Below, piece by piece: positions 33,460 to 59,378 of a stretch of DNA of 64,000 bases. The DNA is taken from contig OZ219816.1 of assembly GCA_964291235.2 (NCBI GenBank), positions 1,696,001-1,760,000 on the forward strand, read 5' to 3'. The DNA comes from Vicinamibacteria bacterium (GTDB lineage: Bacteria; Acidobacteriota; Vicinamibacteria; Marinacidobacterales; Marinacidobacteraceae). The notes beneath the pieces were generated by a model that worked only from the letters and a program-made list of their open reading frames with translations, did no database searches and had not been told where the DNA came from. How positions within the stretch are numbered: position 1 is the first letter of the stretch; every line of letters starts with the position of its first letter. The translations under genes were made by a program, and so were the position numbers.

Positions 33460-33585
33460 TGCATAAGAGCATATCAAATGATGCATAAATATGCCAATCC
33501 ATGATCCCCTCACCGAGACTTCGCAGCCAGCGGTACCCTAGAACCCGGTAACCGGATTCGACCTCCGGACACCCGGAGGCCCCCC

Positions 33586-36934: not shown

Positions 36935-37135
36935 CTATTGCGCGTCATGCAGAACAAGGCCCGGAACACGATCGAAATCCCTCCGGTTTCGGGTCGCCAG
37001 CACCATCGAACGAGTCATGGCGGTCGCGCCGATCAGCGTGTCCGGAAGGCGGAGTCCGGTCTCCCGGCGAATCCGCCCCGCACGCTCGGCGATCTCTCGA
37101 TCCACGGTTAGTTCACCCAGCGGAGCCAGCAAGGG
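36935..37135 (-). pseudogene. C-terminal half of a VapC PIN toxin
   Basis: LLAPLGELTVDREIAERAGRIRRETGLRLPDTLIGATA...LATRNRRDF; no N-terminal DT motif upstream in frame. Confidence 0.8.
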
Positions 37136-37192: not shown

Positions 37193-38305
37193 TCAGACGG
37201 CTCCGGACAGCACCAGGAACACGTAGCCCTTCGCCTGCCGGAGTTGGTTGCCGGAAATGACCAGCTTGATGTGGTGAATGCCGCGTAGCAGCACGTAGCG
37301 GCCGGACTTCGCAAAGAGGGTTGTCGGTTTCGAAACCCAGTCGGCCAGCGCTGTCAGCTTCTCCGAGACTACGAGATCCTCATGGCTCAGGGCTTTCAGG
37401 AACGGTTCCCAATCGGTGAGGCCGTCGAGCCAATAGCGTGAACTCTTGGTGTATCGCTGCTTGACGATGAGCGTCAGGCCGAGTGTCGGACCGACGCCCT
37501 CTTCCTGCAAGTCAATGTTCACCCCGGTTCGGACCACGTTCGCGCGTTCCTCGAAGCGCTGAATCACCGCTTCGACGGCCGCGAGCTGGCCTGGCCAGCC
37601 CGTGCTTTCGAGGTACGACCCTACTTCCCGCTGCGATTGGAAGCCCATGACCGCCAAGCGGATCGCCCGTGAGCGGGACGGGAATACGCCGAACGAGTCC
37701 ATGCGAGTGTCTTCCGGCTGCGCCAGGTAAACGCGTTCGACGTTCGCCCGTTCGGCGTCACGCAGCTCCCAGCCGACGCCGGAGACGAGCGCGCCAACCA
37801 CGGTAACGGCGTCGTGTCCCTGACCGCGGGCGCCCATTATGGGTCGTTCGCCGGGCCGCAGGAATATTCCTGGAAGCGAGCCCTGACCGTCCCGAGCGGA
37901 GCCGATGTCATGTTCCAGCATCAGCTTGCGGCCCACGATCGCACGCAGGGGGGAGTCTTCCGCATCCATCCGGCGGAACAATCGCCCGATCACTCTTGCG
38001 GTCTCATCGGCAGGATCGGTCCGTTCGCGCTCCCGGAAAAACGCCGCCGTCCTGGTTCCGCTCGCGAGGGAGACGCCGAGATCCGCTCTTGGCTCCGGCG
38101 CATGCAGCGGCAGCTCGAAGCCGAACGGCAAGGCGCCCATCGTGATCGGAAGTTCCCGGGCGCGCTCGAGCACGAGGCCCCATTCCGGATCGCCGATAAG
38201 AACCGGCGAGATCCTGTTTCGGAAATGCCCGAGCAGTTCGCACATGGTGCCGCCTTCCTCGGCGAGACGATCCTCGGTGAGGGTGACTGCCTGGTCAAGT
38301 TTCAT
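37193..38305 (-). CDS. Conserved hypothetical RiPP-associated protein (possible ABBA prenyltransferase-like fold), cluster 1
   Basis: Last gene of the YcaO operon; shares PFGFELPL, ADLG.SL, GRK..LE.D, PG.FL, R.LAV.GF, RGIHHIK, K.YVF with 55865-57001. Confidence 0.8.
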   Translation of the reverse strand: MKLDQAVTLTEDRLAEEGGTMCELLGHFRNRISPVLIGDPEWGLVLERARELPITMGALPFGFELPLHAPEPRADLGVSLASGTRTAAFFRERERTDPADETARVIGRLFRRMDAEDSPLRAIVGRKLMLEHDIGSARDGQGSLPGIFLRPGERPIMGARGQGHDAVTVVGALVSGVGWELRDAERANVERVYLAQPEDTRMDSFGVFPSRSRAIRLAVMGFQSQREVGSYLESTGWPGQLAAVEAVIQRFEERANVVRTGVNIDLQEEGVGPTLGLTLIVKQRYTKSSRYWLDGLTDWEPFLKALSHEDLVVSEKLTALADWVSKPTTLFAKSGRYVLLRGIHHIKLVISGNQLRQAKGYVFLVLSGAV

Positions 38306-38314
38306 GTTGCGTCC

Positions 38315-40657
38315 TCACGCGATCACGGGTGCGGGATTCAGATCGGCTTCGGCGAGAGGGTGGTTGCGATGGCCCATCCTGACGGGCACGTCGTAGAGAC
38401 GGCCGGGGGCGAATCGTGCCCAGAAGTGCCGCATTCCGGGCACGATGACCCGCGCCACGGGCATACCGATGTCGGGCCGGGTCTGATCCAGCACCAGCAA
38501 CTCCATGCCCTTCGCTTCGACGAGCGCACGGCAGTTCTCCACATCGTCGCGCGTGTCTGCCGTTTCGATCGCCGCATACCGCGAAGCCTTGCACTGCGGT
38601 GCGTCAGCCGGCGCCAGCCAGGAACAATCGGCGAGACGAGCGGTTTTCCACCACCAAAGCGCCAGTGGGTCATCAATCGCGGGCCGGCCGTCTCTGCTCC
38701 CCGGCCGTGGCAGCCAGGTAAGGCATTGGTTCAGTTCGCACATCGCCCGCAGCGCCGCGATGCGCGGGTCGGCGTGGGCGCCGGCGCCGTAGATGATGTC
38801 CTCGGTCTGGCCCTCCGGCCTGCGCGAGAGCGCGACGAAGGTGGGAATGCCTATATCGGAGGTGACGTCGAGCATCCACACGTCCCGCTCGTAGCGGGCG
38901 TAGTGCTCTGGGGCCGATGCGAGGTAATCGTCGTCGAAGGTGGCGAGATCGACCGCCGGGGCCCGCAGCCGGTTGTACCACCAGATTGCGAACGCATCGC
39001 GCTCTACCAGTTCATAAAAGCCCTGCAGGACGGCTTCTTCCAGGGTATTGCCGGCAGCGCAGCCGTTCGAATCGGCGATCAGGTCCGCAGGGCCGCGCCG
39101 TTCGGCGGGCATGCTGTAGAGCATGGACGTCGGCAGATAGCGATGCCGCTGCTGCGTCAGCGACCACGCCGGTGTCCAGTCGATTTCGGCGTCGGGATCG
39201 AGACGCTGCGGGACGATGTTGTACGGATGACCCTTCGCGTTGATGCTTGCGGCATTGTCGAACTGATGGTCGCTGAACAATTGCGCGTCGTTGGGATGGA
39301 TGGCCTCGCCGCCCGCGAACTCCCTGAACCGCCTCCGCAGGCGGATCTCATCTCCACTGCACGCGCCCGAATGGCGTTCGACCGCTTCGCAGAGCGCGCT
39401 GACCCTGGATTGCTCCCGAGTGGCGCCCTTGCCGGCGCTCTTGCTCCGGAGGCTGCGCCGGAGCGAACTCAGGGTTCGGCTTCTCACGCCGAGATTGCTG
39501 CCGGCCCAATAGACGTGCAGCCACGAATCGTTCTCATCGGTGGTGCGCGACAGCCAGGTCACGACCCCACTGATCGGGCTCACCAGGTGGCGGTATTTCG
39601 CCAGCGTGACTTCCGGCGACACGGTGCGTGCGCCGCCGCTGTTGCGGTGAGCCTTGGGACTCGCTTTGAGAGACAGCGGCACCGGAAGCCGGTCCGGCCG
39701 ATGGAGCGCTTCGTCGCCACAGGCCGGGCACTGCGGCCGGCGCACTACGGGGTGTTGCGAACTCGTGAAGGTGCCGACGTTCATGGCAATCGCGTGTTCG
39801 TGAATCGGGGCCGCGTCCTCCAGCACGAGCCACTTGACGATTTCGGCCGCGATCAGCCGGTAGAGCGCCTCCAGAACCGCGGGCTGGGCCGCGAACGGCT
39901 TGAAGGCCGCCTGGTCGCCGGCAATGTTGCGCAGAAAACCGTGGACCTCCTGATGGCTTCCCAGCCGGTACGCCAGACAGTCCCAGCAGGGTCCTTGTTC
40001 GCCCGCGTGAAAGACGGGGCCGAACAGCGCCTCCATGCCACGCGGCCGCACCAGCGTCCACGCCGCTTTCGCCTCGAGCTGGCGCCGATTCACTGCTGCA
40101 AGGTGCGTCTCGAGGTAGTCCTCGCAAACGATGACGGTGAGCGTGGGATCGGTAGTCCCCACGACGGCGCCGCCCTCCTCGAGATGCCGAATGAACTGGC
40201 TCTCGTCACCGTTGACCGCGATGCGCGATTCCGCCAGCCGCCTTTCGACCCAGCGCGGGGATGCGCCGAGCGACGACCAATAGGCGGCCCGGCGGCGGTC
40301 CATGCCGTGATCGGCAGAAACGACATAACCCTTGGCCGAAAGCGACCCAAGGGCCGAGAAGACCTCGGAGGCGGCATGGACGCCCTCCACGGCGGCGACG
40401 ATCGCATCCAGCGGGTGCTGACCATCGAGGAGCGGTAGCAGGTTGCAATACAGCTTGCCGTGCAGCAGGGTGTTGAAGGTTTCGGAAACCAGCAGCGTCT
40501 GCTGGTCGCCAATCTGGTGAAACCGGAGGTGCGGTGCGAGAGCAGGAAGCTTGACCAGTCCCCGGTCCGCGGAGGTTCTTCGCGGCAGGATTCCGGGCCG
40601 GGAATTCGTGTCCGTATGCCTTGCCAGCGGGGACTTCCGCGCCGAATCAGCCGGCAT
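38315..40657 (-). CDS. Fused E1-like/YcaO cyclodehydratase (TOMM C-D), cluster 1, SrpC-like
   Basis: GPCWDCL, RRPQCPACG, LVSPISGVV, SAGKG, ALCEAVER, DSNGCAAGNTLEEA, ELVERDA, ARVIVPGMRHF, C-terminal LNPAPVIA; start ATG 40657. Confidence 0.95.
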   Translation of the reverse strand: MPADSARKSPLARHTDTNSRPGILPRRTSADRGLVKLPALAPHLRFHQIGDQQTLLVSETFNTLLHGKLYCNLLPLLDGQHPLDAIVAAVEGVHAASEVFSALGSLSAKGYVVSADHGMDRRRAAYWSSLGASPRWVERRLAESRIAVNGDESQFIRHLEEGGAVVGTTDPTLTVIVCEDYLETHLAAVNRRQLEAKAAWTLVRPRGMEALFGPVFHAGEQGPCWDCLAYRLGSHQEVHGFLRNIAGDQAAFKPFAAQPAVLEALYRLIAAEIVKWLVLEDAAPIHEHAIAMNVGTFTSSQHPVVRRPQCPACGDEALHRPDRLPVPLSLKASPKAHRNSGGARTVSPEVTLAKYRHLVSPISGVVTWLSRTTDENDSWLHVYWAGSNLGVRSRTLSSLRRSLRSKSAGKGATREQSRVSALCEAVERHSGACSGDEIRLRRRFREFAGGEAIHPNDAQLFSDHQFDNAASINAKGHPYNIVPQRLDPDAEIDWTPAWSLTQQRHRYLPTSMLYSMPAERRGPADLIADSNGCAAGNTLEEAVLQGFYELVERDAFAIWWYNRLRAPAVDLATFDDDYLASAPEHYARYERDVWMLDVTSDIGIPTFVALSRRPEGQTEDIIYGAGAHADPRIAALRAMCELNQCLTWLPRPGSRDGRPAIDDPLALWWWKTARLADCSWLAPADAPQCKASRYAAIETADTRDDVENCRALVEAKGMELLVLDQTRPDIGMPVARVIVPGMRHFWARFAPGRLYDVPVRMGHRNHPLAEADLNPAPVIA

Positions 40658-40659
40658 TC

Positions 40660-41970
40660 TCAGGCGGTCAGGACTCCGACAAGGCGCTCCAGAGCTTCCA
40701 CACAAAACGCGGAGGTCACGGCTTCGGAGCCGTGTCCGATCTGCCCGACGGCGCCCCATTTCAGCGTCTGGTCGCCGAACGCCAGAAACTCCGGCCAACT
40801 GCCGTCCTCGCGTTGTGAACTCAGGAGCCGCTCCACCTGGCGTTTCACGCCAATGCTCTTGAGGCTTCCGACGCCATCGAGCGCCGACACTGCCTGGGCG
40901 GTCTGAAGGATGTTGCCGAATTCCCCGTTCTCGTCGCGCAACGCCAGAATGCGGTCCGCGAGTATCGGCCGTAGTCGAGCCAGAGCAGGCCGCGCGCGAA
41001 CCATGGCGCGGACGGTCGCATAGTAGATCGCGACCGTGTCGGGATACCACTTGGATGAGCCCTCGACCTTGCCTTCGGTGATCAGAGCCTCCAGCCACCT
41101 TTGGGCGTCCCTGGTTTCGGGGCAGGCGCCAAGATAGGCGATGACATTCGCATTGACTACGGGATCCGCTTCTATCCGGAACGGCGAAACGACATCGGGT
41201 TCGTCCTCGGCCAGGACCCAGGTCAGGAAACGGCCCCGCTCATCGCGATTCGCCAGCAGTGCCGGAATGTTCCTCCCCAAGAGGATCCAGGGATGCGTCC
41301 CCAAGACCTGTGAGCAGAGGGTGGTGCTGTCGAGATCCTGGGGAAGGTGGCGGTAATACCGCCACAAACCGGGATACTCGATGGTGTTCGTAAGGTGCGC
41401 CCTGGTAGCGTCGCACATGGCCCTGGCCCGCGCTTCGTGGCAACTCTCCAGAGCCAGTACGCAAAGAGCCGAAATGAACGGCGGCCTTTCGAAGTGCCGT
41501 GGAATGTTGGGGTCGGCGACGTTGAACCGGATGCAGTGCCAAGCGCCATTTTCGTCGAGGGTGGATTCCAGAAACGCGAGACCGCGGCGGATGCTCTTCC
41601 GAGCCGATCGGGCGAGGGTTGCGGAAGTGGCGCCGCTCTTCCCGGCGCGCGGGCGCTCGGGGGTCGGCGGTCGAAGGGGCGGTGCGGGGTCGTAGAGCGT
41701 CTTCTTGAGAAACGCGAGTGATGCGGCGCCGGTCCGCGCCTCCTTTCGTTCGGACTGGCTGAGTGTGGCACGCGGCGGAAGCACCAGGTGGGTCGTGGAA
41801 TAGGTCTCTTCGTGCACGTGAATCTGGTGGCCTTCGGCCAGCTTCACGCCGAGTTCCTCTTCGATCGTGGCTTTGGGTTTCGCGAGCAGGCGTTCGCGAA
41901 AGTCGTTGTCCTCGCCGGCTCGCGATACGAGGGAGTCGGCGACGGCATTGAGTCCCTTCCTTGATGTCAC
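40660..41970 (-). CDS. NHLP leader-like domain fused to a prenyltransferase/squalene-cyclase-repeat (class II terpene cyclase-like) domain
   Basis: N-term RAGEDNDFRERLLAKPKATIEEELGV...IHVHEE...HLVLPP (NHLP); C-term RRGLAFL..DENGAW, LWRYY...PQDLDSTT, DPVVNANV, QREDGSWP, GSEAVTSAFCVEAL. Confidence 0.82.
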   Translation of the reverse strand: MTSRKGLNAVADSLVSRAGEDNDFRERLLAKPKATIEEELGVKLAEGHQIHVHEETYSTTHLVLPPRATLSQSERKEARTGAASLAFLKKTLYDPAPPLRPPTPERPRAGKSGATSATLARSARKSIRRGLAFLESTLDENGAWHCIRFNVADPNIPRHFERPPFISALCVLALESCHEARARAMCDATRAHLTNTIEYPGLWRYYRHLPQDLDSTTLCSQVLGTHPWILLGRNIPALLANRDERGRFLTWVLAEDEPDVVSPFRIEADPVVNANVIAYLGACPETRDAQRWLEALITEGKVEGSSKWYPDTVAIYYATVRAMVRARPALARLRPILADRILALRDENGEFGNILQTAQAVSALDGVGSLKSIGVKRQVERLLSSQREDGSWPEFLAFGDQTLKWGAVGQIGHGSEAVTSAFCVEALERLVGVLTA

Positions 41971-44906
41971 GCGATCTGCCTCCTGATCAATTCCTTGAAC
42001 ACGCCGTCGGTTTCCATGAGTTCGCTGAAGGATCCGCTCTGTACCACTTTGCCGGCCTGCAGGACATAGATGCGGTCCGCCTGTTCCAGCGTGGACAGGC
42101 GGTGGGCGATGACGAGGCGGGTGGAGGTCAGGGCGGCGAGGTTCTTCATTACCCTGGCCTGGTTTTCGTTGTCCAGCCAGTTGGTTGCCTCATCGAACAG
42201 CATGATCCGCGGACTGCCGATCACCGAGCGGGCGATCGTCACCCGCTGACTTTCGCCGCCCGACAGGACAGCCCCGCTGGTCCCCACCATGGTCATCAGG
42301 CCCATGGGCATTCCCTTGATTTCGCTTTCGACCTCGGCGGTGCGGACGGCCGTCCAGACCTCCTTGCTCGTCACTCCGTCGTGGTGGCTGACCAGGTTGT
42401 CCCACAGATCCAGGGGATGAAGCCGGACGGACTGCGGCACCGCGCCGACCTGCCGGCGCACCTGCTTCAGGTTCAAGTGCCTCAGGTCGCGCCCGTCGTA
42501 GTACACGGCGCCGGCACTCGGCCGGTCGACTCCGAGTGCGAGCCGGAACAGGGTGCTCTTGCCAGCGCCGGACTCCCCGGCGATCGCCACGAATTCGCCA
42601 GGACGGGCGCGAAGGGTGACATCGTCCAGAATCAAAGGGCCGTCGGGGTCGTAACGGAAGGAAACACGGTCGAAGAGAAGCTCGCCGCCCAGCGAGTCGA
42701 CCGGTTCTCCTTCGAGTTCGGTCTCGGGAACCGCGGCGAGCAGGGGGCGCATCTGATCGAACGCCGGGACCATGGAGGCAACGGCGCCGAAGGACTCGCC
42801 GAGCCGGGCGACTGCGGACTGGAAGGCGATGAAGACGGTGTAAACGACGAGAAAATCGCCAACCGGAACGTTCCGGTCGCCCACTGCCACGGCCAGGAGC
42901 AGTACCCCACCGGCAAGAAAGGGAAGTGCGGCGCCGAAGGCCCGCGAGTGCCCCTCGAGTGCGCCCAGTTCGAGTTCCGCGCGTTTCTGCTCGCGATAGT
43001 CCCGCGCCCAGATGGCGAAAGCCGATCCTTCGGCGTTTTCCACCCGCAGCTTGGTGATTCCGCCCACGATCTGGAACAGCCGGCCGGCTACGCGACGGGC
43101 CGCGCCGATCATCTGCCCATGAGGGGATACCTGGCGTAAACCGAGCGCCACGGTGATCAGGACCGAAGCCAGGCTGAAGATCAGGGCGACGGTCCCAAGG
43201 CCGGTGTCATAGAAGAAGATGACGGCCAACACCGGAAGCAGGAAAACGACCGACAGCAGGCTGTCGGCGACGACTCCCTGCAAGCCGTCGCGAAGACTCT
43301 GGAACGTCATTCCCGACATGGCCAGATCGCCGGCCGGACGGCGGCGGAGAACGCTGGGCGGAAGCCGCATGAGGCGGTCCCAGAAGGCGGCTTCGACCCG
43401 CGACGCCGAGCGTCCCTCGAGCCGCATCATCGCGGTGCTCTGCAGCAGGTGCAACAGTGCGCCGAGCAGGCCGAACGCGGCCACCGTCACGGCCACGGCA
43501 TAAAGCGCTGAGGTGCTTCCGCCGTCCGTCAGGTGGTGGGCAACGAATCCGAGCGCGAGGGCCGGCACCAGCTTGACCAGGCCGCCCGGAAGCCCGGCAA
43601 CCACCAGCCGCGCCAGGTCCGGGCCCGATCCATGGAGGGCCGTTCCGAGGAGCTCTGCCGGTTTCACGCTGCCGGGCGGCAAGGGCCGATAGAACATCCA
43701 GGCTTCCTCGCCCAGCGTGCGGGCGCGATCCGGCGTGATCCGGACACCGCGCTTGCTGACCGGGTCCACCTCCCGGTAGCGCCCGAAGATTCCCGGCAGG
43801 AGCGCTACGGGCCGGCCGTCCTCCGCGCGGAATGCCAGCAGCGCGTTGCTGTCGCCGTGCCACCAGTCGCCCTCGGCCTTGAACCGCACCCGCCGGGCGC
43901 GTACGCCGGACGCATCGAGCACGTCAACCAGGCCGACTCGAGCATCAGATGCACCCGAACGCGCCGGAATCCTGAAATCGATTCCTTCACGGCGGCCGAT
44001 GATCCGGAGGGCGTCCGCCAGAGCCGCGTCATCGACTCTCGCACCTCGATCGGTCGGAAGGTCGTAGATATTGAAGAGCCGCTGCCGCGCCGCCTTTGCG
44101 GCCCGGCGGCGGCTGGTGGTCCGTGCGCGTTCGAGATTGGCATCGTCAACCGTGGCGAGTCGGCGGTTGTGGCGCTCGAGGGCGAACGCGGCCGTGTGGA
44201 AGGAGGCGAGCGCCCGCGGCAGCATGCCGCGTTCCGCCAGGGTCTTTGTTGATTCGCCGGAAAGGGTGACCTTGTCGAACAGGCTGAGCCAGCTCGTTCG
44301 CGTCAGCGGTACCGGAGTCCGACTGGCGCCGCTCGTCCCGGCGAGTTCCGCCGGGTCCACGATCCCCATGAACAGGCTTGCGCCGCGCGGCGGTTCGGAT
44401 ACCCAGACCACCCCGCGCCGCACGGACAGCGTACAAGGGGCCAGGGTCTGGGTGACACCGGGTTCGGCCAGGGCGGTTGCACGCGGAAGGCGGCTTGCAA
44501 AACGCGAAAGCGTGTCCGTTATGGCGGTCAACCAGGTATCCGTCTGTTCCCCCAGTTCCGACGGATCGACCTCTGACAGCAATGACGCCGACAGGCGCTT
44601 CAGAATGGTGCCGGGCAATCCCTTGGCAATCAGGCTGAGCGTCGCGCCTTCGTCGCTCTCCCGTTCGTCCGGTGCGACACCCGGAAGCAGACAGCCCGAT
44701 TCGCGCCGCAACAGGTGCTGCGGCGCCGCTCGTTCCACCCGGTCCTTGAGTTCGACCAGAAACAGATTGACCGAACCCCGATCAATGAACCAGACAGTGT
44801 CTGGGTCATCGAGTTCCACCGGCAGGTTGCCGGCGCAGGGCACAGACGTCCCGGAGCGGGCCGCGAGTTCGGCCAACGATGTGTATCGCGGTCTCGTGTC
44901 GTGCAT
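41967..44906 (-). CDS. NHLP-type bacteriocin export ABC transporter permease/ATPase
   Basis: cNMP-like N-terminus, ASGVRARRV...WWHGDSNALLAF, AFWDRLMRLP, GESGAGKST, LSGGESQR, DEATN, IAHRLST; start ATG 44906 (TGATG overlap). Confidence 0.93.
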   Translation of the reverse strand: MHDTRPRYTSLAELAARSGTSVPCAGNLPVELDDPDTVWFIDRGSVNLFLVELKDRVERAAPQHLLRRESGCLLPGVAPDERESDEGATLSLIAKGLPGTILKRLSASLLSEVDPSELGEQTDTWLTAITDTLSRFASRLPRATALAEPGVTQTLAPCTLSVRRGVVWVSEPPRGASLFMGIVDPAELAGTSGASRTPVPLTRTSWLSLFDKVTLSGESTKTLAERGMLPRALASFHTAAFALERHNRRLATVDDANLERARTTSRRRAAKAARQRLFNIYDLPTDRGARVDDAALADALRIIGRREGIDFRIPARSGASDARVGLVDVLDASGVRARRVRFKAEGDWWHGDSNALLAFRAEDGRPVALLPGIFGRYREVDPVSKRGVRITPDRARTLGEEAWMFYRPLPPGSVKPAELLGTALHGSGPDLARLVVAGLPGGLVKLVPALALGFVAHHLTDGGSTSALYAVAVTVAAFGLLGALLHLLQSTAMMRLEGRSASRVEAAFWDRLMRLPPSVLRRRPAGDLAMSGMTFQSLRDGLQGVVADSLLSVVFLLPVLAVIFFYDTGLGTVALIFSLASVLITVALGLRQVSPHGQMIGAARRVAGRLFQIVGGITKLRVENAEGSAFAIWARDYREQKRAELELGALEGHSRAFGAALPFLAGGVLLLAVAVGDRNVPVGDFLVVYTVFIAFQSAVARLGESFGAVASMVPAFDQMRPLLAAVPETELEGEPVDSLGGELLFDRVSFRYDPDGPLILDDVTLRARPGEFVAIAGESGAGKSTLFRLALGVDRPSAGAVYYDGRDLRHLNLKQVRRQVGAVPQSVRLHPLDLWDNLVSHHDGVTSKEVWTAVRTAEVESEIKGMPMGLMTMVGTSGAVLSGGESQRVTIARSVIGSPRIMLFDEATNWLDNENQARVMKNLAALTSTRLVIAHRLSTLEQADRIYVLQAGKVVQSGSFSELMETDGVFKELIRRQIA

Positions 44907-47116
44907 CAGCCTGACCTGATCAGCTTGTAATACGACCCATCCCGGTCCGCCATCAGTTCGTCGTGCGTGCCGCGTTGCGCTTCCGCGCCCTTGTTGAGCA
45001 CGATGATCTCGTCGCAGTCCCGCACGGTGCTGAGCCGGTGCGCCACGATCAGGCAAGTGACGCCGCGTCGCCGCAAGGCGTCGTCCACGTATTCCTCGGT
45101 TGCTGCATCGAGGGCGCTCGTTGCCTCGTCCAGAACGAGCACTGTCGGATGGCCCACGAGCGCGCGGGCGATTTCGAGTCTTTGGCGCTGGCCGCCGCTG
45201 AAGTTCGCCCCGCCTTCTTCGACGATGGTCGAGTACCCGTCCGGTCTCACCAGGATTTCGTCATGGATCCATGCATCCCGGGTGGCGGCGAAGATGGCTT
45301 CATCCGGAATCGCCGGGTTCCAAAGGGTGATGTTGTCGCGTAGAGATGCGGAAAACAGCACGACATCCTGATCCACCATGGAGATGGACTGCTGGAGAAC
45401 TTCCTCGGGTATCTCGTCCCGCAAGTGGCCGTCGAACAGGATCTCGCCCGACCAGGGCTGATAGACACCGGAAACGAGCCGAGCCAGCGTCGACTTGCCA
45501 GAACCGCTGGGACCGACCACGGCAACCCGCTGGCCGGGCTTGAGTACCAGGTTGAAGTTCTCGATCAGCGGCGCCCGACTCTTGTTGAACCCGAAGGTGA
45601 TGTTCCGCAGTTCGAGGCGGCCGGTAAGCTGGAGCCGGCCGTTGAATGTGGGGATGGATTCTGATTCCGGGCTCCGCCGGCTGAAAACGGGATCTTCGGT
45701 GGCGGCGGATATGTCGTCCAGGCGTTGCAGATCCGTTTCGAGCGCCTGGCGTTTGTCGGCGAACTCCAGGAAACGGTCCACCGGCGCCAGGAACATTTCC
45801 GCGAGGACGAAGAACGCCACCAGCGTTCCCAGGGTCATTTCGCCATTCAGGACCAGGCTCCCTCCGATACCCAGGACCGCCGCACTGCGGACTGCGGCGA
45901 TGAGGCCCGGAAGCGCGGAACTAATGGAGCCCAGTTCGGAATAGAGCTGACGCGCATGGAGTTCGCGCGCCTGCTGGCCGCTCCAGCGCGAAAAGAACCG
46001 GTCATCCGATCCCGTCATGCGCAGGTTTTCCGCATGACTCAACATCTGCATGCCGACGCCGATCAGCAGCCCCTGTTCGCGCCGCATCGCCCGGCTGCGA
46101 ACGGCCTGGGGTCCGTTGACCAGGTGGGCCACCGCTCCGTGGAGAACCGCCAGGAGCACCACGACCAGGGCAAGCAGGGCATCGTAGGCCACCATGGCGA
46201 CGAGCAACACCACGCTCATCGCCATGTCGATGATGAGCACGAGGAACTGGTCGGTCAGGTTCTTCGCGATCCTGTCGATAGACGAGACCCGATCGGTCAG
46301 GTCGCCCACCAGCCGGTGCGCGAAGAACTCGACCGGCAACCGCAGCAGGCGTGTCACGCCCCGGTTGTATCCGGTCACCGAGATCCGGACTGCGAGCCGT
46401 TTCAGGAATCGGTGCTTGAGCAACGACAGTATGTAGACCAGGACGCCGCCGCCCAACAGGGCCACCACCACACCGATCCACGGCCCATGGTTCTCCAGGA
46501 CGTCGTCCACGAAAACACCGATCGTCGCCGGCACGATGAGCGCCAGCAAGGTCAACATGAGCGCGCAGGCGGTTACTCCGGCAAGCACGCTCCATGATCC
46601 GGCGAGCAACGAGCCCAACTCCGCGAAGAGGCTGCGCTGTTCGCCTCCCGTGCTGAAGTCGGCGCCACGTTTGAATCGCAGGGCGATTCCACTGAAGCCC
46701 TCGCAAAACTCCTCGACGGAAAGCTTGCGTCGCCCCGTGGAGGGGTCGTTGAGGTAGTAACTGGTGCCATCGAATCCTTCGAGGACCACGAAATGGCTGA
46801 ATTGCCAGAACAGAATCAGCGGTAGTTCCAGGTGTCTCAGTTGATCGGCGCGTACGCTGAGTCCTTTGCACTCGAGACCGTAGTGTCTGGAGGCGCGCCG
46901 GATGCTGGCGGCACTACTCCCGTCCCGACTCACCTCGCATCTTTCGCGCAGTTCGGTGAGTGGCACAAAGCGCCCGAAGTAGGCCAGGATGCTGCCGAGG
47001 CATGCGGCGCCACATTCCGACGCGTGCATCTGCAACACAATGGGCGTGGTGATCCTTCGCTTCGAGGACTCCGATGCGGCCCTGCCGCGAGTCCTTCCGG
47101 AAGCGCGTGGCGCCAT
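44906..47116 (-). CDS. NHLP-type peptidase-containing ABC transporter (C39 peptidase + TMD + NBD)
   Basis: VLQMHASECGAACL (catalytic Cys), HFVVLEG, LNDP; GPSGSGKST, FSGGQRQRLEIARAL, DEATSALD. Confidence 0.95.
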   Translation of the reverse strand: MAPRASGRTRGRAASESSKRRITTPIVLQMHASECGAACLGSILAYFGRFVPLTELRERCEVSRDGSSAASIRRASRHYGLECKGLSVRADQLRHLELPLILFWQFSHFVVLEGFDGTSYYLNDPSTGRRKLSVEEFCEGFSGIALRFKRGADFSTGGEQRSLFAELGSLLAGSWSVLAGVTACALMLTLLALIVPATIGVFVDDVLENHGPWIGVVVALLGGGVLVYILSLLKHRFLKRLAVRISVTGYNRGVTRLLRLPVEFFAHRLVGDLTDRVSSIDRIAKNLTDQFLVLIIDMAMSVVLLVAMVAYDALLALVVVLLAVLHGAVAHLVNGPQAVRSRAMRREQGLLIGVGMQMLSHAENLRMTGSDDRFFSRWSGQQARELHARQLYSELGSISSALPGLIAAVRSAAVLGIGGSLVLNGEMTLGTLVAFFVLAEMFLAPVDRFLEFADKRQALETDLQRLDDISAATEDPVFSRRSPESESIPTFNGRLQLTGRLELRNITFGFNKSRAPLIENFNLVLKPGQRVAVVGPSGSGKSTLARLVSGVYQPWSGEILFDGHLRDEIPEEVLQQSISMVDQDVVLFSASLRDNITLWNPAIPDEAIFAATRDAWIHDEILVRPDGYSTIVEEGGANFSGGQRQRLEIARALVGHPTVLVLDEATSALDAATEEYVDDALRRRGVTCLIVAHRLSTVRDCDEIIVLNKGAEAQRGTHDELMADRDGSYYKLIRSG

Positions 47117-47117
47117 C

Positions 47118-47660
47118 CTAGGATCGCCCCATCCGCAAGAGTTGGACGGGAGACTGCCTGCCCAGTTCGATGACAATCCGGCACTCCCGATCCGTCAGGG
47201 AAGCAAGGTCAACGCTTTCTTCGAGCGCGATGTCGACGCGATACACCGCGACTGCGGATCCGAACGCCGCCAGTCCCTCGGAAAGGGGTACGGCGGAAAT
47301 CGCCGTCACCTTTCCGTCCAGCGTATCTGCCCCATCTTCGGTGGTCAGCACCAGGACCGCCGGCATCCCGGACCTGATCTGCGGCGCGAGGTCGCGCTCG
47401 ACCTGGACAAGCGCCTGGACGGACGTGCTGCCCTCGGTCAGGATTCCGCCAGGGTCGGCCAGTACTCCGTTCACCGCCCGGCGGTGGGCCACGTCACCAA
47501 ATAAGAGCCACCCGGTGAGGGCGAACAACAAAAGACCAATCGCGGCGACGAGCAGCCGCTCCCGGGGTGTCGAAATCGTCAACAACCGGTCGAGTTGTTC
47601 GCGTTCTTCCTTTGCCTCCGCAACAGTGTTGTGAAATGAGCCAAATGGATTGTTGAACAC
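47118..47660 (-). CDS. Short NHLP-system secretion accessory protein (HlyD-like N-terminus)
   Basis: EQLDRLLTISTPRERL + TM + W..FG motif typical of NHLP HlyD proteins; C-terminal IELGRQSPVQLL; only ~180 aa; GTG start with GGAGG RBS. Confidence 0.75.
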   Translation of the reverse strand: MFNNPFGSFHNTVAEAKEEREQLDRLLTISTPRERLLVAAIGLLLFALTGWLLFGDVAHRRAVNGVLADPGGILTEGSTSVQALVQVERDLAPQIRSGMPAVLVLTTEDGADTLDGKVTAISAVPLSEGLAAFGSAVAVYRVDIALEESVDLASLTDRECRIVIELGRQSPVQLLRMGRS

Positions 47661-47700
47661 GACCGTGCATTGCCTCCGTTGAAGTGTTCCAGGACCGGCA

Positions 47701-48975
47701 CTAACGCCCAAGGCCCTCGGACATCTGGGCGTAACTGGTGAGCGGGACCGCGCACATCCGACTCAAGTCTGCCTGTTCGACGACGGGCTGGTTCAGTAGT
47801 TCGATCATTGCGTCGAACTTGTGGAGTGCGCCGCAACCAGTCACGTCGGGGTCCGCTGCCTTGCGGTATTGCGGCCATGCGGCGTCGCGGGCGTGGCGCC
47901 AGAACGCGCTGTCGTACCCGGAGCCACAGGAATAGTGCCAACCGACGAACAGGCCGTAGCAGAGCATGTTGCTGACAAGAAACCGATTGACGACAAGCGC
48001 ATCTTGCTCAAGGTTCTCTACCGGGCGGTTGAGACGAATCTGGAGCACCATCCCGATTTGAAACTGGGCGGATACGATTGCCGTTGCTTCGAGCGGCTCC
48101 ATGAACGCCGCTGCGTTGCCTATCCGGGCTACCGCGCCATCGTACATCTTGCGGTGGACAAAATTGGGAAACGAAATGACGGCGCGCTGCTCGAACTCCG
48201 TTACGCCGTCGGTCTGGAGGAACGCGTCGAAATCCGACTCGACGTCAGCGAGGCCGGATACCTCGCGGTTGAAGATGTACCCGTAGGACGTGTGTACGGT
48301 AAGAGGAATAACGAAGATCCAACCGTGTGGACGCGCAACCGCACGGGTATAGGTGTGCTCCAGAACGGGCACATCCTGCTCGGCGTTGACAACTGCCGGA
48401 CCGCGGCGGATAACGGCGGTATCGGTGGGGATGAAAGGAATGTGGATGTGCCGGTCGGGATCGAGTTCCCCAGGAAACCCGCGGGCATCGAAGACCAGGT
48501 CGTAACGTTCAGGCGCCCGATCCTCGAATTCCACGTGCGCCCCGCCGTCAACGCTGGAGATGTTGAGCACTTTCGCGTCGATGTGGCGTGCGCGCGTGTT
48601 TTCCTGCAGCAGCTCCGACATGACGTCGGCGGATAGATGGTAGGCGTAGGACACCTGTTGCGGGGTGAAGTGGTGGATGAAATCCCGACCGCGCCGACCC
48701 CATCCCTCGAATGCAACACCGTACTTGCGAGTACCTTTCAGACGTATCTGGACGGTCTCCTGGGGCAGATCCGTCAATTGCTGCAGATGCTGAACGAGGC
48801 TCGGCCAACTGCCTTCACCCACTCCGATGACCGGGATGCGCGAGTCATAGATGTGGTGTAGCTCGTGGTCTTTGTCGGGGTGGAGACGCGTTACGGTTGC
48901 GGCCGCCAAAGACCCTGCGGTTCCTCGCCCGACGACCGCGATCTTCCGGAGAGATTCGCTGCCTGCTTGTACCAC
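47701..48975 (-). CDS. srpI: Flavin-dependent tryptophan halogenase-like enzyme, SrpI-type peptidyl brominase
   Basis: GRGTAG FAD motif, IGVGEG, RKYGVAFEGW (catalytic Lys region), GWIFVIPL, GNAAAFMEPLEATAI; clustered with an LCCCW NHLP precursor as in described sponge srp clusters. Confidence 0.85.
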   Translation of the reverse strand: MVQAGSESLRKIAVVGRGTAGSLAAATVTRLHPDKDHELHHIYDSRIPVIGVGEGSWPSLVQHLQQLTDLPQETVQIRLKGTRKYGVAFEGWGRRGRDFIHHFTPQQVSYAYHLSADVMSELLQENTRARHIDAKVLNISSVDGGAHVEFEDRAPERYDLVFDARGFPGELDPDRHIHIPFIPTDTAVIRRGPAVVNAEQDVPVLEHTYTRAVARPHGWIFVIPLTVHTSYGYIFNREVSGLADVESDFDAFLQTDGVTEFEQRAVISFPNFVHRKMYDGAVARIGNAAAFMEPLEATAIVSAQFQIGMVLQIRLNRPVENLEQDALVVNRFLVSNMLCYGLFVGWHYSCGSGYDSAFWRHARDAAWPQYRKAADPDVTGCGALHKFDAMIELLNQPVVEQADLSRMCAVPLTSYAQMSEGLGR

Positions 48976-49625: not shown

Positions 49626-49877
49626 TTACCAGCAGCAGCAAAGGCCAGCCGAAATCGCTTCGAGTTGCTCCTCAGTGATGTTCGGGTCCGGCGGCAACGC
49701 GAGATGCACCGTCTGCATGTCGCTCTCGTGGACCTTGATGGTCATCGAATCGGGAATCGAAATGCCCAATTCCCCACTAATCGCGGCCTTTGGGTCAGCG
49801 AGCAGTTGACGCCTGAAGTTCGCGTCCACCGCAGATTTCCCAACGACATGCTGCAACATCTCATTGCCGTTTCTCAT
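49626..49877 (-). CDS. srpE: NHLP-leader (proteusin) RiPP precursor, core LCCCW (SrpE-type)
   Basis: AAGGAGG RBS; DANFRRQLLADPKAAI...KVHESD..TVHLALPP...TEEQLEAISAG|LCCCW. Confidence 0.92.
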   Translation of the reverse strand: MRNGNEMLQHVVGKSAVDANFRRQLLADPKAAISGELGISIPDSMTIKVHESDMQTVHLALPPDPNITEEQLEAISAGLCCCW

Positions 49878-50073
49878 GGCAATTCCTCCTTGGTGATGGC
49901 TGGCTACCCGGCCAGCAATGCCACAGGACTGTAACGTGGACATTGGGCAGGGTCAAGTCATTGGGGTCCGAGATGTTGCGGTGTTGCGGTGTTTTGGTGT
50001 TGCGGTACTGGGGATTGGACCTTCCCCGGCTCCGGGCGAGCGGTGGCGCGCCTCGGAAATCGCGCGATGGCCG

Positions 50074-55441: not shown

Positions 55442-55714
55442 ATGAATCCCGAAACGATCATGCAGAGTGCTGAGGACATGCGCCGGCGTCTCACCGAGAA
55501 GGCCGTGCAGGATCCCGAGTTCCGCGCGAGTCTCGTATCCGATCCGAAGGGCGTCCTTCAGGCCGAGTACGGCATCCAGTTGCCGGACGAGGTCAGCATC
55601 GAGGTACACGAATCCGACGACAACACCGTCCATTGGGCGCTGCCGTCTTCGGCGACACTGAGCGAGAAGCAGCTCGACCAGATCGCCGCCGGCCTCTGCT
55701 GCTGCGGAATCTGA
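55442..55714 (+). CDS. NHLP-leader RiPP precursor 2, core LCCCGI
   Basis: AAGGAGG RBS; EKAVQDPEFRASLVSDPKGVL...EVHESD.NTVHWALP...LSEKQLDQIAAG|LCCCGI. Confidence 0.92.
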   Translation: MNPETIMQSAEDMRRRLTEKAVQDPEFRASLVSDPKGVLQAEYGIQLPDEVSIEVHESDDNTVHWALPSSATLSEKQLDQIAAGLCCCGI

Positions 55715-55864: not shown

Positions 55865-57001
55865 TCAGACAGGCTGCTGGCCGGGGGCGACCCCGCCCGC
55901 CGGCTGGGCGTAGCGAATCAGCCAGAAGACGTACGCCTTGACCTGCTCGACCCGCTCCGGGGTCAGCGCCACCTTGATGTGGTGGATACCTCGGATCAGC
56001 ACGTACATACCGGCCTTGCCGAACAGCGGTTCCAGACCACACGACGTTTCCTCGAGCGCCGACAGCTTCTCCGGAATGCCCAGGCCGTCCTGCCCGAGCC
56101 CGTCCAGCAGGGCCTTCCAGGGTTCGATGTCCTTCACCCACTCACCCTGACTGGGGAAAAAACTCAACCCGAGCGTTCGTCCCAGGCCGTCCGCCCGGAC
56201 GTCCAGATGCACGCCCAGAGTGCCGAACGCCTCGCGCCGCTCCATGCGACTCGCGACCGAAGCGACCAGATCCCGATTGCCAGCCCAGTCCGCACGTTCC
56301 AGGAACGCGAGGAGTTGGGAGGCGTTCGAGAACCCCGTTACGGCAAGGCGAACCGCCCGCGTGCGTGAAAGGAAGGCCCCGGCGCCCCGAATCGCGGCCT
56401 CCGGCGCCATCGCGGCGTACACCCGTTCGGCTTCGCGCCGTTCCGTCTCGTCGGGCTCCCAACCCAGCGCCGCGACCAGGGCGTCCATCACGACGCCGAG
56501 GTCTCGGCGCGCCGCTTCGGAACCGCCGCCGGCCAGGACGCCCTCCGCCGGATACAGGAAGACACCCGGGGCCGGCGCCACCTCCCCTGGCGTCCGGGGC
56601 ACGTCGTACTCGAGCAGCATCTTCCTGCCGATGATCCGCCGGAGCGCGGAGTCCGCCGGCCTCGTTCCGTCGAGCAGCCGGGCGATGGCCCGCGTGATCG
56701 GATCGGCGCCCGCGCGCCGCGCCTCGGCCGTGTAGTACTCCTCGGAAAGGCTGTCGCCGAGGAGCGACAGGCCGAGATCCGCCACTGGCCGGGGTTCGAG
56801 AAGCGGCAACTCGAACCCGAACGGAAAGGCGGCCAGCGTGACGGGGAGGCCCCGCACCCGTTCCCACGCCCGCCGCCACTCGGCCTCGCCGATCAGCAGC
56901 GGCGACAGCCGCCGCCCGAACGGCGCCAGCAGCGCTTCAAGGGAGGCAGCCTCGCGCGGCAACACCCTCTCGGTCGGGGGCCAGTCCTCCAGGAAACTCA
57001 T
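55865..57001 (-). CDS. Conserved hypothetical RiPP-associated protein (paralog of 37193-38305), cluster 2
   Basis: FPFGFELPL, ADLGLSL, GRKMLLEYD, RAVRLAVTGF, RGIHHIKV, VKAYVF; directly downstream of YcaO as in cluster 1. Confidence 0.8.
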   Translation of the reverse strand: MSFLEDWPPTERVLPREAASLEALLAPFGRRLSPLLIGEAEWRRAWERVRGLPVTLAAFPFGFELPLLEPRPVADLGLSLLGDSLSEEYYTAEARRAGADPITRAIARLLDGTRPADSALRRIIGRKMLLEYDVPRTPGEVAPAPGVFLYPAEGVLAGGGSEAARRDLGVVMDALVAALGWEPDETERREAERVYAAMAPEAAIRGAGAFLSRTRAVRLAVTGFSNASQLLAFLERADWAGNRDLVASVASRMERREAFGTLGVHLDVRADGLGRTLGLSFFPSQGEWVKDIEPWKALLDGLGQDGLGIPEKLSALEETSCGLEPLFGKAGMYVLIRGIHHIKVALTPERVEQVKAYVFWLIRYAQPAGGVAPGQQPV

Positions 57002-57019: not shown

Positions 57020-59356
57020 CTAGGCAATCACGGGGGCCGGGTTGAGTTCGGATTCGGAGAGCGGGCTCGGGAGCCGCCCCATCGCGACCGGCACATCGAA
57101 CAGCCGGCCGGGCGCGAAACGTTCCCAGAAGTGCCGCATTCCCGGCACGATCACCCTTGCCACCGGCATTCCGATGTCGGGGCGGGTCTGGTCGAGGACC
57201 AGGAACTCCATCCCGCGGGTCTCCACCAGCGCCCGGCAGCGCTCGACGTCTTCGCGCACGTCCGTCGTGTCCGGGACGGGATAGTCGTCCCTGCCGCAGA
57301 GAGACGATTCCGGCGCCGGCGCCAGGTAGGGGTTTTCTTCCACCGTGGCCTCCTCCCACCAGCGAAGCGACATCGGATCCATGAGGTCGCGCCCAGCGCC
57401 GCCCCCCTCCACCGCCTGGATCCAGCTCAGGCACTGGTTCAACTCACACACCGCGCGGAGCACCGCCACCTGCGGATCGGGATGCGCCCCCGCACCGTAG
57501 AGGATGGTTTCCGCGTCCCCGCCGGTGCGCCGCGAAACCGCGACGAAGACCGGAATTCCCAGGTCGCTCGTAACGTCAAGCACCCACATTTCGCGTCCCC
57601 GCCGCCGGTAATAGTCGGGCGCGGAAACCAGGTACTCGTCGTCGAAGCTCCCCAGGTCCACGCCGGGCGCCGGGAGCCGGTTGTACCACCAGATCGCGAA
57701 GGCGTCGCGTTCGACCAGCTCCAGGAACCCCTGCAGGATGGCCTCCTCCAGGGTGTTCCCGGCGGCGCAGCCATTGGAATCGGCGACGGGTTCCCAAGCC
57801 TCGCGTTCCTCGGACGGCAGGCCGTACAACATGGACGTCGGCAGGTACCGGTGGCGGCTCTGGGTGAGCGACCACACCGGCGACCAGCTCGCTTCCCGCT
57901 CCGGATCGAAGCGGGGCGGGATCACGTTGTAGGGATGGCCCTGGGCGTTGATCCGATCTCGCTCGTCCAACTGCCGGTCGCTGAAGAGTTGGACGTCGTT
58001 CGGGTGGATCGCCTCGCCGCCGCCCGCCCGTTCGAAGTCGCGGTAACACTTCCGGACCCGGATCTCGTCCCCGTGGAACGCGCCCGAATACCGTTCGAGC
58101 GCTTCACAAAGCGCGCTCGCCTCGGACTGCGCGCGCGTCTCGCCCTTGCCCGCGCTCTTGCTGCGCAGGCTGCGGGTCAGCGAACTCAGCGTTTTCGTGC
58201 GGAGGGCCTGATTGCTGCCGGCCCAGTACACGTGAAGCCACGGGTCCGCTTCCTCCGACGTGCGTTTGACCCAGGTCACGACCCCGCTGACCGGGCTCAC
58301 CAGGTGACGGTAGCGGGCGAGGGTCGCCTCCGGGGCGACACCGCGCACCCCGCCGCTGTTGCGAATCCGCTTCGGGCTGGAAGCGAGCCGGACCGGGACG
58401 GCCGGCCGGTCGGTGCGATAGAGCGCCTCATCGCCGCAGGCAGCGCACTGGGGCCGGCGCCTGACCGGGTGACGCTCATTCTTCAAATGGGTGAGGTCCA
58501 GAGAAAACGCGTACTCGTGGAGCGGCGCCAGCTCCCCGAACACCAGCCACTTGGCTATTTCCGCCGCGGCGAAGCCCAGGACCGAATCCCGGACTCCGGG
58601 TTCCGCTGCGGCCGGGTGGAAGACGGAGTCCGCGTTGCGATTGCGCAGGAAATTGTGGACTTCCTGGTGCCCGCGCAGGCGGTGGGCGAGACAGCGCCAA
58701 CAGGGTCCCTGATCCGCCGGCCGGAAAATCGGCCCGAACAGCGGAGACATTCCGCGGGGGCGGAGCAGCATCCACGGAGTTCCCGACTCGAGCTGCCGCC
58801 GATTGAGGTCGGCGTGCTGCTCATCAAGATAGTCGGCGCAGACGACCACCGTAAGAACAACGCCGGCGGTGCCTGACGGGACGCCCATCCGCTCCAGGCG
58901 CCTCGCGAGTCCGCCTTCGTCACCGTGCACCCGGACCCCGGCGGCGCCGAGTCGCTGCTCCGCCCACCGGGGGGAGGCTCCCAGTGAGGACCAGTAGGCG
59001 GCGCGCTCCCGGGCCATGGCGTGTTCGCCCGAAACCACGTATCCCCTGGAGGCAAGCGCGACGAGCGCCTCGAAGACGTCGGAAGCCGCATGGACGCCGG
59101 CGAGCGCGGCGGCCAGTTCCTCACGCGAGCGGCGTCCGTCGAGCAACGGCAGGAGGTCGGCGTAGAGGGCGCCCCCGAGCAAGGTGTTGAAGGTTTCGGA
59201 AACCAGCAGCAGCTGTCCGCCCCCAACGGGACGGAACTCCAGGTGGGGCGCCAGCGCCGGCCTGTCCACGACGCCGGCGTCGGCAGCGGTGATCCTCTTC
59301 AGGATGCCGCGGCCCGGATTCGCCCGTGGGGCACCCTCCCGGTCCCAGTCCGACAT
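57020..59356 (-). CDS. Fused E1-like/YcaO cyclodehydratase, cluster 2
   Basis: Same motifs as 38315-40657 (GPCWRCL, RRPQCAACG, SAGKG, DSNGCAAG, ELVERDA, LNPAPVIA); start ATG 59356. Confidence 0.95.
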   Translation of the reverse strand: MSDWDREGAPRANPGRGILKRITAADAGVVDRPALAPHLEFRPVGGGQLLLVSETFNTLLGGALYADLLPLLDGRRSREELAAALAGVHAASDVFEALVALASRGYVVSGEHAMARERAAYWSSLGASPRWAEQRLGAAGVRVHGDEGGLARRLERMGVPSGTAGVVLTVVVCADYLDEQHADLNRRQLESGTPWMLLRPRGMSPLFGPIFRPADQGPCWRCLAHRLRGHQEVHNFLRNRNADSVFHPAAAEPGVRDSVLGFAAAEIAKWLVFGELAPLHEYAFSLDLTHLKNERHPVRRRPQCAACGDEALYRTDRPAVPVRLASSPKRIRNSGGVRGVAPEATLARYRHLVSPVSGVVTWVKRTSEEADPWLHVYWAGSNQALRTKTLSSLTRSLRSKSAGKGETRAQSEASALCEALERYSGAFHGDEIRVRKCYRDFERAGGGEAIHPNDVQLFSDRQLDERDRINAQGHPYNVIPPRFDPEREASWSPVWSLTQSRHRYLPTSMLYGLPSEEREAWEPVADSNGCAAGNTLEEAILQGFLELVERDAFAIWWYNRLPAPGVDLGSFDDEYLVSAPDYYRRRGREMWVLDVTSDLGIPVFVAVSRRTGGDAETILYGAGAHPDPQVAVLRAVCELNQCLSWIQAVEGGGAGRDLMDPMSLRWWEEATVEENPYLAPAPESSLCGRDDYPVPDTTDVREDVERCRALVETRGMEFLVLDQTRPDIGMPVARVIVPGMRHFWERFAPGRLFDVPVAMGRLPSPLSESELNPAPVIA

Positions 59357-59378
59357 CCGAACGGCCTCCGGGTTGCGG

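Follow-up and report, generated by a model that had tools for sequence, protein, structure and literature searches.

A leader-like domain fused to a predicted class II terpene cyclase, beside a candidate prenyltransferase, in an srp proteusin gene cluster

The window analysed here is a 64,000-nucleotide stretch of contig OZ219816.1 from a Vicinamibacteria bacterium (assembly GCA_964291235.2, positions 1,696,001 to 1,760,000), and the gene in question is an open reading frame (ORF) encoding 436 residues on its minus strand (40660-41970). Its product, called the fusion protein below, joins an N-terminal domain resembling the leader peptides of the NHLP family to a C-terminal domain of the class II terpene cyclase kind. 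The gene is part of a cluster for a ribosomally made peptide that is modified after translation (RiPP). Given that an NHLP precursor with the core LCCCW, a YcaO enzyme, a tryptophan halogenase and NHLP exporters are all present, this is the published srp (sponge-derived RiPP proteusin) biosynthetic gene cluster, and comparison with the published srp clusters (SrpE, SrpC, SrpI; Nguyen et al. 2021, as described in PMC10858898, PMC10286304 and bioRxiv 10.1101/2023.06.09.544420) yielded no difference. On the minus strand the genes follow one another in the order precursor, tryptophan halogenase, short HlyD-like protein, C39 peptidase/ABC (ATP-binding cassette) exporter, second ABC subunit, fusion gene, YcaO gene and a 370-residue ORF, termed PTL here. 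The coordinates are presented in Table 1.

SrpC makes thiazolines out of the three cysteines in the LCCCW core of SrpE, and SrpI adds bromine to the C-terminal tryptophan at indole C6 (PMC10858898, PMC10286304). The srp clusters are reported to occur in all microbially diverse sponges queried and to be highly transcribed, their ecological role being described as elusive, and a survey notes that such clusters carry "several genes of unknown function" (PMC11832590).

The ORF is present as the preliminary description of this locus had it, with a GTG start codon. The tight packing behind the translational coupling which that description had proposed between exporter and YcaO is real: the start codon shares bases with the TGA that ends the ABC exporter gene upstream (GTGA), and the TGA stop (40662-40660) lies 2 nt before the YcaO ATG at 40657. 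AGGAGG stands 8 nt 5' of the GTG and gives this start a strong ribosome-binding site. Nine bases separate the YcaO stop from the start of PTL.

Table 1. Features of the srp cluster and of the second srp-like cluster in the window, with the basis of each assignment.
Feature	Position	Strand	Basis
Fusion of NHLP-leader-like domain and class II terpene cyclase beta domain, 436 aa	40660..41970	-	homology; start/stop context
N-terminal NHLP-like structured domain, residues 1 to ~72	41755..41970	-	TIGR03793, 8tb1, SrpE leader alignment
Linker, residues ~73-120, in place of the leader's L(X)4L/double-Gly region; x(X)4R...TGA, then conserved FL..T..DPAPP.R	41611..41754	-	alignments with SrpE and orthologues
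Class II terpene cyclase beta domain (predicted), residues ~121-436	40663..41610	-	family profile against PDB: AsDMS 9mhs_B E 2.3e-29
DLDST, residues 212-216, with D214 opposite the middle Asp (general acid) of DLDTT in AsDMS	41323..41337	-	family alignment
SrpC-type YcaO cyclodehydratase, winged-helix (RRE-like) and E1-like domains	38315..40657	-	PF02624 E 1.5e-97, TIGR03882, PF21084
370-aa PTL protein, putative prenyltransferase	37193..38305	-	coupling to cyclases; language-model neighbours
NHLP-system ABC exporter subunit 2 (ORF bounds; putative start)	41967..45056	-	TIGR03797 E 9e-200
C39 peptidase/ABC exporter subunit 1	44906..47176	-	TIGR03796 E 1e-254, PF03412
Short HlyD-like secretion protein	47118..47711	-	TIGR03794 E 1.1e-7, N-terminal 70 residues only
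SrpI-type flavin-dependent tryptophan halogenase	47701..48975	-	PF04820 E 1.3e-44; role from literature
SrpE precursor, NHLP leader ...AISAG, then core LCCCW	49626..49877	-	TIGR03793 63.4 bits; core as published SrpE
Second NHLP precursor, core LCCCGI (no Trp), 45% identical to SrpE	55442..55714	+	paralogous cluster
PTL2, 38% identical to PTL	55865..57001	-	adjoins YcaO2
YcaO2, 62% identical to first YcaO	57020..59404	-	paralogous cluster
S-adenosylmethionine (SAM) methyltransferase of second cluster	59379..60257	-	
830-aa FA_desaturase and GlnE-like protein of second cluster	60329..62821	-	same domain pair as insert of srp locus L087

On its own, the C-terminal domain yields sub-threshold matches to squalene-cyclase repeats (PF13243 with E 1.8e-5 and 24.4 bits, the cut-off being 26.1). 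A family profile of 65 relatives of the domain was searched against the PDB, and it matched the drimenol synthase AsDMS over profile positions 21-317 of 323 (E-value in Table 1), squalene-hopene cyclase (E 3.9e-23), fungal AstC (E 4.4e-19), the monodomain cyclases 8paj and 8pak (E of about 5e-19) and, locally over some 50 residues around the QW motif, MstE (E 1.6e-4). The AsDMS counterpart of the family consensus PDLDDT, which reads DLDST in the window protein, is PDDLDTT in this alignment. At least 90% of the 65 relatives in the alignment retain D212 and D214, and the stretch D212, L213, D214, S215 does not vary among all 29 close orthologues. In AsDMS, DLDTT supplies the general acid of catalysis, an Asp that faces bound farnesyl thiol (PMC12232559). 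QREDGSW (386-392) is a canonical QW-type motif, and DENGAW (139-144) a degenerate one.

These values confirm, at the level of homology, a single-domain, class II (protonation-initiated) terpene cyclase of the AsDMS/AstC/MstE kind, as the preliminary description had read from the DLDST and QW-like motifs. Its choice of MstE (6sbb) as the model holds in that MstE, a meroterpenoid cyclase, is likewise a single-domain enzyme of class II, one whose substrate is a prenylated non-diphosphate, yet AsDMS and AstC are much closer. They share with the window protein a single beta domain, an acid motif of DxDT(T) type and QxxDGxW near the C-terminus, but differ from it in acting on free farnesyl diphosphate (FPP) and in their fusion with a phosphatase domain that is haloacid dehalogenase (HAD)-like. 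An exhaustive search with the C-terminal domain returned 1707 representatives (E <=1e-3), many of them stand-alone proteins of about 320 residues with 30-46% identity. Other relatives are fused to P450s, to PhyH dioxygenase, to a sulfotransferase-like domain or to further N-terminal domains; the latter include one that, judged by eye, looks like an isoprenoid synthase (P0191) and a weak Trp_DMAT-like domain (P0182, E 1.9e-4).

At the other end of the protein, residues 11-71 match the TIGR03793 model (leader_NHLP) with E 2e-12 and 46.8 bits over profile positions 6-67 of 77. This score is below the curated cut-off of 50.9 bits, which leaves the domain just outside the family as the model defines it, yet the homology is clear. 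The domain also matches Pfam NHase_alpha (E 5e-5) and the solved NHLP leader MprE7 (8tb1, E 1.3e-4), and it shares 31-37% identity with SrpE, the precursor of the same cluster (E 1e-10 to 1e-13 by tblastn), with similarity across the whole leader as far as the cleavage-site Gly. The leader-like N-terminus given in the preliminary description is thereby upheld, in the sense of a structured nucleus homologous to that of NHLP leaders. The fusion protein differs from such leaders in scoring under the cut-off, in having neither L(X)4L nor a short core, and in carrying 350 enzyme residues after the leader-like part.

The differences are concentrated in the linker. In the alignment with SrpE and 29 orthologues, the positions of the SrpE L(X)4L motif read x(X)4R in the fusion protein, its TG-A aligns with AG-L of SrpE, the Ile at position -4 of SrpE is Ala, and all 29 orthologues of the fusion protein have Arg at position -7. 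Instead of a double-Gly site with a short core, the 350-residue enzyme stands after TG-A. Residues E74, R75, A78, G81, S84, F87, L88, P95-P98 and R100 of the linker are likewise invariant in all 29 orthologues. SrpI and an NHLP-dependent YcaO both need the leucines of L(X)4L, and the same motif contacts C39 domains (PMC10858898, PMC12455567, PMC12715784). The structured NHLP nucleus, notably helix alpha-1, is reported as a protein-protein interface for the RiPP recognition element (RRE) of YcaO; a LanM and a lanthipeptide prenyltransferase engage it too.

Because the L(X)4L and -4 anchors are lost, the N-terminal domain is plausibly a leader nucleus that has been retained for docking and stays uncleaved. 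The preliminary description had offered three roles for it, i.e., docking the enzyme on YcaO, activating YcaO in trans, or tagging the enzyme for the C39 transporter by way of a degenerate double-Gly site. Given the absence of the hydrophobic C39 anchors (x(X)4R, -4 Ala), tagging for cleavage and export is the least likely of these, and that part of the description is not supported. A complex prediction for YcaO (4-row alignment) with fusion residues 1-110 (29-row alignment) returned no answer, scoring 0.00 in both runs with controls not being folded, and speaks neither for nor against docking.

A homologue search with the whole protein gave 1097 proteins at E <=1e-3 among 8000 candidates. All 120 fusion homologues among the matches listed are 429-466 residues long, 73-96% identical and aligned over 97-100% of the query. 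Where their source is named, they come from metagenome-assembled genomes labelled Deltaproteobacteria, Nitrospira, Nitrospinae, Gemmatimonadota and Acidobacteriota, and they are annotated as "hypothetical protein" and once as "nitrile hydratase subunit alpha". Within a sample of the organism's own phylum, 3 of 301 genomes match the fusion protein at E <=1e-20; the match is full length in its own genome only and confined to the cyclase part in the other two. Such patchiness agrees with the horizontal spread that has been reported for srp.

Contigs from four runs of four studies cover the fusion gene or its domain junction with no indel or joint, and a single contig of one independent run (X16) spans 40400-42108. 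At least half of the sampled words of the stretch were found in 20 rows from 9 studies, four of the runs being labelled "sponge metagenome", and no RNA dataset is among the 24 runs listed for it. The preliminary description had allowed for a chimeric ORF. That an error of assembly or ORF calling created the fusion is refuted for practical purposes by the uniform length class of all listed homologues, the other srp loci, the joint-free contigs of X16 and three other runs, and the strong ribosome-binding site, which leave such an origin next to no probability.

The second gene on which the interpretation depends is PTL, the candidate for the missing PRENYLTRANSFERASE, which is probably a prenyltransferase. 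This assignment is based on genomic coupling to cyclases and on the precedent of NctPC and ChrPC, not on homology. In NctPC an ABBA-fold prenyltransferase domain of low sequence similarity is fused to an MstE-like cyclase, and in ChrPC the fused prenyltransferase is trans-IDS-like (IDS, isoprenyl diphosphate synthase); both enzymes prenylate a Trp of a ribosomal peptide, with chains of up to C20, and then cyclise the chain (PMC13290415, citing Hubrich et al. 2024). By this description, the window and the NctPC/ChrPC systems would have in common a RiPP pathway with a prenyltransferase (PTL being the putative one here) and a monodomain class II cyclase, the acceptor there being Trp and prenylation preceding cyclisation. 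As in NctPC and ChrPC, fusions of both activities would also exist in the family of the window cyclase (PTL-cyclase proteins P0184, P0219, P0251, L001 and L002). Unlike in NctPC and ChrPC, the activities would be split in the window over two separate genes that flank the YcaO gene, an NHLP-leader-like domain is part of the cyclase protein, and the srp pathway also makes thiazolines and bromo-Trp.

PTL has 992 homologues at E <=1e-3, the 120 listed being 74-99% identical. Its whole length can be aligned with the N-terminal halves of the cyclase fusions P0184 (BLASTP E 1e-4), P0219, P0251 and P0270, and ten residues are invariant in a 16-row PTL alignment. A search of 16 members against Pfam with E up to 10 returned no match, and a profile of the PTL-cyclase fusions matched PDB entries in the cyclase part only. 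The named language-model neighbours of PTL are Trp_DMAT (0.90) and PTase_Orf2 (0.88) clusters, which are a lead only. The family PF11991 occurs in 1 of 5 selected genomes; within one phylum, 1 of the 301 genomes searched has it.

The coupling was counted in 80 genome loci retrieved with the cyclase-fusion alignment, each with a neighbourhood of 8 kb. PTL is fused to the cyclase homologue or within 8 kb of it in 15 of the 80: twelve loci have cyclase and PTL, and three have in addition a small NHLP-like ORF, which one further locus has beside the cyclase without PTL. In L084, which holds the closest cyclase relative found in the phylum sample, PTL is the gene immediately upstream. In L034 the order is NHLP precursor (...PEG-WRPF), PTL, cyclase; in L027 and L029 an NHLP precursor ending in GGG-ITWSS...CSC adjoins the PTL-cyclase pair; in L016 a precursor of this type lies beside the cyclase, with no PTL on its 2976-base contig; and in L021 a Nif11 precursor ending in ...GTWC is immediately upstream of PTL. 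All of these cores contain Trp, as does that of the window srp cluster. The srp cyclase domain is 25-37% identical to the cyclases of the 80 loci throughout, L034 ranking top, and this identity ranking produces no clear grouping with the PTL-linked cyclases.

Two further results of this comparison may be added. PTL was also considered as an accessory protein of YcaO, which was rejected, YcaO being present in only 1 of 16 PTL-cyclase loci. In ten cyanobacterial loci, from Nostoc, Spirulina, Microcoleus and others (L040, L045, L048, L049, L054, L056, L061, L062, L064 and L066), the cyclase domain lies inside long frames of about 1090-1780 residues, in which no PTL domain was detected.

The arrangement seen in the window recurs in a sample of eight metagenome srp loci. 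YcaO follows 3' of the fusion gene in six of the seven loci with at least 1 kb of downstream sequence, the exception (L091) having 1.96 kb downstream with no YcaO match, and PTL follows YcaO in all four loci that are long enough. The cyclase and YcaO genes abut in L086, L089 and L090, and are separated by an insert of about 2.5 kb in L087, L088 and L093. The insert of L087 (2907-5357) encodes an 816-residue protein with a fatty-acid-desaturase/AlkB-type membrane domain and a GlnE-like nucleotidyltransferase domain. As the second cluster of the window encodes this domain pair too (Table 1), an FA_desaturase-family enzyme is recurrent in srp-type clusters. Its presence favours, independently though only circumstantially, a lipid substituent on these peptides, and a peptide-bound lipid chain may be its substrate.

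Precursor and halogenase differ in position among the srp loci. The LCCCW precursor of the window (49626-49943 region) is upstream of the halogenase and shares its strand. Its counterpart in L086, a metagenome locus 95-99% identical to that of the window, is located past PTL (14479-14727) and on the opposite strand, the 2.4 kb before the halogenase containing no precursor. Given this difference in placement, the precursor gene has moved between near-identical clusters.

A second srp-like cluster spans the window from 55.4 kb to its end, where its ABC subunit runs off; its genes are included in Table 1. Between the two clusters, at 50496-52690 and 52728-55220 on the minus strand, are genes for a SAM methyltransferase (UbiE/CMAS-like), an FAD-linked oxidase (FAD_binding_4, BBE-like) and an 830-residue ORF with a C-terminal amidohydrolase domain.

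Taken with the literature, these results lead us to propose, with a probability of roughly 0.55, that the fusion protein is a tailoring enzyme of the srp pathway which cyclises a polyprenyl chain attached by PTL to the SrpE core, its N-terminal domain serving for docking. SrpE would be made first, YcaO would form the three thiazolines and SrpI would brominate the Trp, as the literature has it. PTL would then attach a farnesyl or geranylgeranyl group from the cellular pool to the SrpE core, by precedent most likely on the Trp, and D214 of the cyclase DLDST would protonate the terminal (distal) double bond of the chain and close the rings. During this the leader-like domain may hold the cyclase, which has no RRE, at the leader-binding machinery (YcaO and/or PTL), and the C39 exporter would finally take off the true SrpE leader. 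The two homologies, the conservation of motif and fusion, the operon packing and the PTL-cyclase coupling come from sequence comparison, and thiazolines, bromination and the existence of prenyltransferase-cyclase RiPP maturases from the literature; PTL activity, acceptor, step order and docking role are what we infer. The terpene-RiPP hybrid suggested in the preliminary description has thus gained a candidate prenyltransferase, coupled to cyclases elsewhere, and the precedent of NctPC and ChrPC, while its claim to novelty is lowered because terpene-cyclised RiPPs are already known.

Several observations weigh against this proposal. Regarding the cyclase, the sequence of the fusion protein alone reaches AsDMS with only E 0.075 in a single-sequence PDB search, the third Asp of the canonical DxDD is Ser (Ser/Thr likewise in the AsDMS/AstC variant), and the barrel fold and the placement of D214 are predicted from homology. 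Regarding PTL, phmmer and two profiles searched against the PDB gave no match, nor did Pfam or NCBIfam; PF11991 and PF11468 searched against the organism's own genome with E up to 10 gave none either. The hhalign comparison of PTL with a 12-row alignment of dimethylallyltryptophan synthases (DMATS) has a probability of 0.6% and E 0.098, colinear over 218 columns, and those with the N-terminal domains of P0182, P0213 and P0232 have a probability of 0.5%. As for genomic context, 64 of the 80 cyclase loci have neither PTL nor an NHLP-like ORF within 8 kb, only one cyclase-domain gene exists in the genome (3.45 Mb, 90% complete), and a polyprenyl synthase is absent from the cluster, such genes occurring elsewhere in the genome.

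The second cluster, as far as the window reaches, has neither a cyclase nor a halogenase. Given that it has PTL2 and a precursor with the core LCCCGI, the PTL acceptor need not be Trp, and PTL may function independently of a cyclase. The PTL locus L035 agrees in having a weak Nif11-like precursor ORF whose core likewise contains no Trp. Possible alternative acceptors are the termini or other side chains, and terminal prenylation of an azole peptide is represented by muscoride, cited in the reference list of PMC13290415.

The literature adds a further point on the same side. Cyclase, prenylation and terpene are unmentioned in the available parts of three srp papers (PMC10858898, PMC12537861, PMC12615548), the founding paper and the supplements being outside this scope, and Supplementary Fig. 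1 of PMC10858898 may name both genes. The scope just given applies to the literature statements that follow. We know of no published srp product that bears a terpene.

Other explanations of the fusion gene were weighed against the same evidence. Its main role might not be catalysis: the protein could regulate or activate YcaO by mimicking the leader, or could bind the lipophilic product as an alpha/alpha-toroid, for immunity or as a chaperone. SrpC expressed with SrpE alone is poorly active and could not be purified (PMC10286304), the fusion gene ends directly before the YcaO start, and cyclase activity in this subfamily is itself a prediction, all of which would suit such a role. We nevertheless consider it unlikely, given that all 29 orthologues keep the acid motif and many residues of the predicted barrel unchanged, as expected of an active enzyme, and that YcaO2 of the second cluster has no such partner. 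A catalytic alternative is that the steps are reversed, the cyclase acting on free FPP or geranylgeranyl diphosphate (GGPP) and PTL transferring the cyclic prenyl diphosphate to the peptide. This would agree with the activity of AsDMS and AstC, its closest solved relatives. Only two of the phosphate-binding residues named for AsDMS were mapped, and they point in different directions: R368 corresponds to R265, invariant in 29 of 29 orthologues, whereas R370 corresponds to Glu267, in a column that is variable in the wider family. As NctPC and ChrPC prenylate first and cyclise afterwards (PMC13290415), and a leader-like domain makes little sense on an enzyme that never meets the peptide, the reversed order appears quite unlikely.

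The N-terminal domain might also be a true leader, cut by the C39 ABC transporter at TG/A or GA/A, the cyclase being exported to act extracytoplasmically or as cargo itself. The Gly of the fusion protein does align with the -1 Gly of SrpE, and the gene stands directly after two exporter genes. Yet none of the 29 orthologues has the hydrophobic anchors (-7 Arg invariant, -4 Ala), in a region whose L(X)4L motif contacts C39 in true leaders. A folded barrel of about 36 kDa is moreover far bigger than the usual cargo of a peptidase-containing ABC transporter (PCAT), and a partner step that depends on cytoplasmic prenyl diphosphate suits a cytoplasmic enzyme better. Export of the cyclase is therefore very unlikely.

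Returning to cyclisation on the peptide, a bolder version may be put forward tentatively, and we would not rely on it: the end product of srp would be a terpene-peptide hybrid rather than a brominated tri-thiazoline pentapeptide, the leader-bearing cyclase would plug into the leader-binding site of the YcaO/PTL complex, and ring closure might take place onto the bromo-indole. Cyclase and brominase both accompany the Trp core and are both absent from the Trp-less cluster (a comparison with n=1), which hints that cyclisation involves the indole; closure onto the bromo-indole would account for this co-occurrence. It may also be speculated that the insolubility and poor activity of SrpC without its neighbours would be explained if the fusion protein, encoded upstream and coupled, were its partner.

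The srp cluster and terpene-cyclised RiPPs such as the products of NctPC/ChrPC are already known. What appears new is the assignment of two conserved srp genes as cyclase and likely prenyltransferase, the splitting of these activities around the YcaO gene, and the natural fusion of a leader-peptide domain to a tailoring enzyme. If the proposal is correct, the mature srp product would be a brominated azoline-terpenoid peptide, mass-spectrometric searches would need to target a compound of another mass and greater lipophilicity, and reconstitution of srp, whose maturation is hard to reconstitute and whose SrpC is poorly active, should include PTL and the cyclase. PTL would be either a new family of peptide prenyltransferases, with about 1000 srp-type members, or the P domain already described for NctPC. 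The leader domain would represent a new way of recruiting an RRE-less tailoring enzyme, with a possible use in RiPP engineering, and the leader-bearing cyclase would be a natural counterpart of engineered leader-enzyme fusions.

The surroundings of the cluster suggest that it is an acquired island, given its lower GC content (0.61-0.66 between 38 and 50 kb, most of the window elsewhere having 0.67-0.73), a PIN remnant of 65 residues directly past the last cluster gene (36938-37132, minus strand; C-terminal part of the PIN domain only), and a complete VapB/VapC (PIN) pair at 32792-33513 (minus strand). Also beside the cluster, at 33586-36825 on the plus strand, is a gene for a 1079-residue Sortilin/Vps10-BNR repeat protein, which is probably unrelated.

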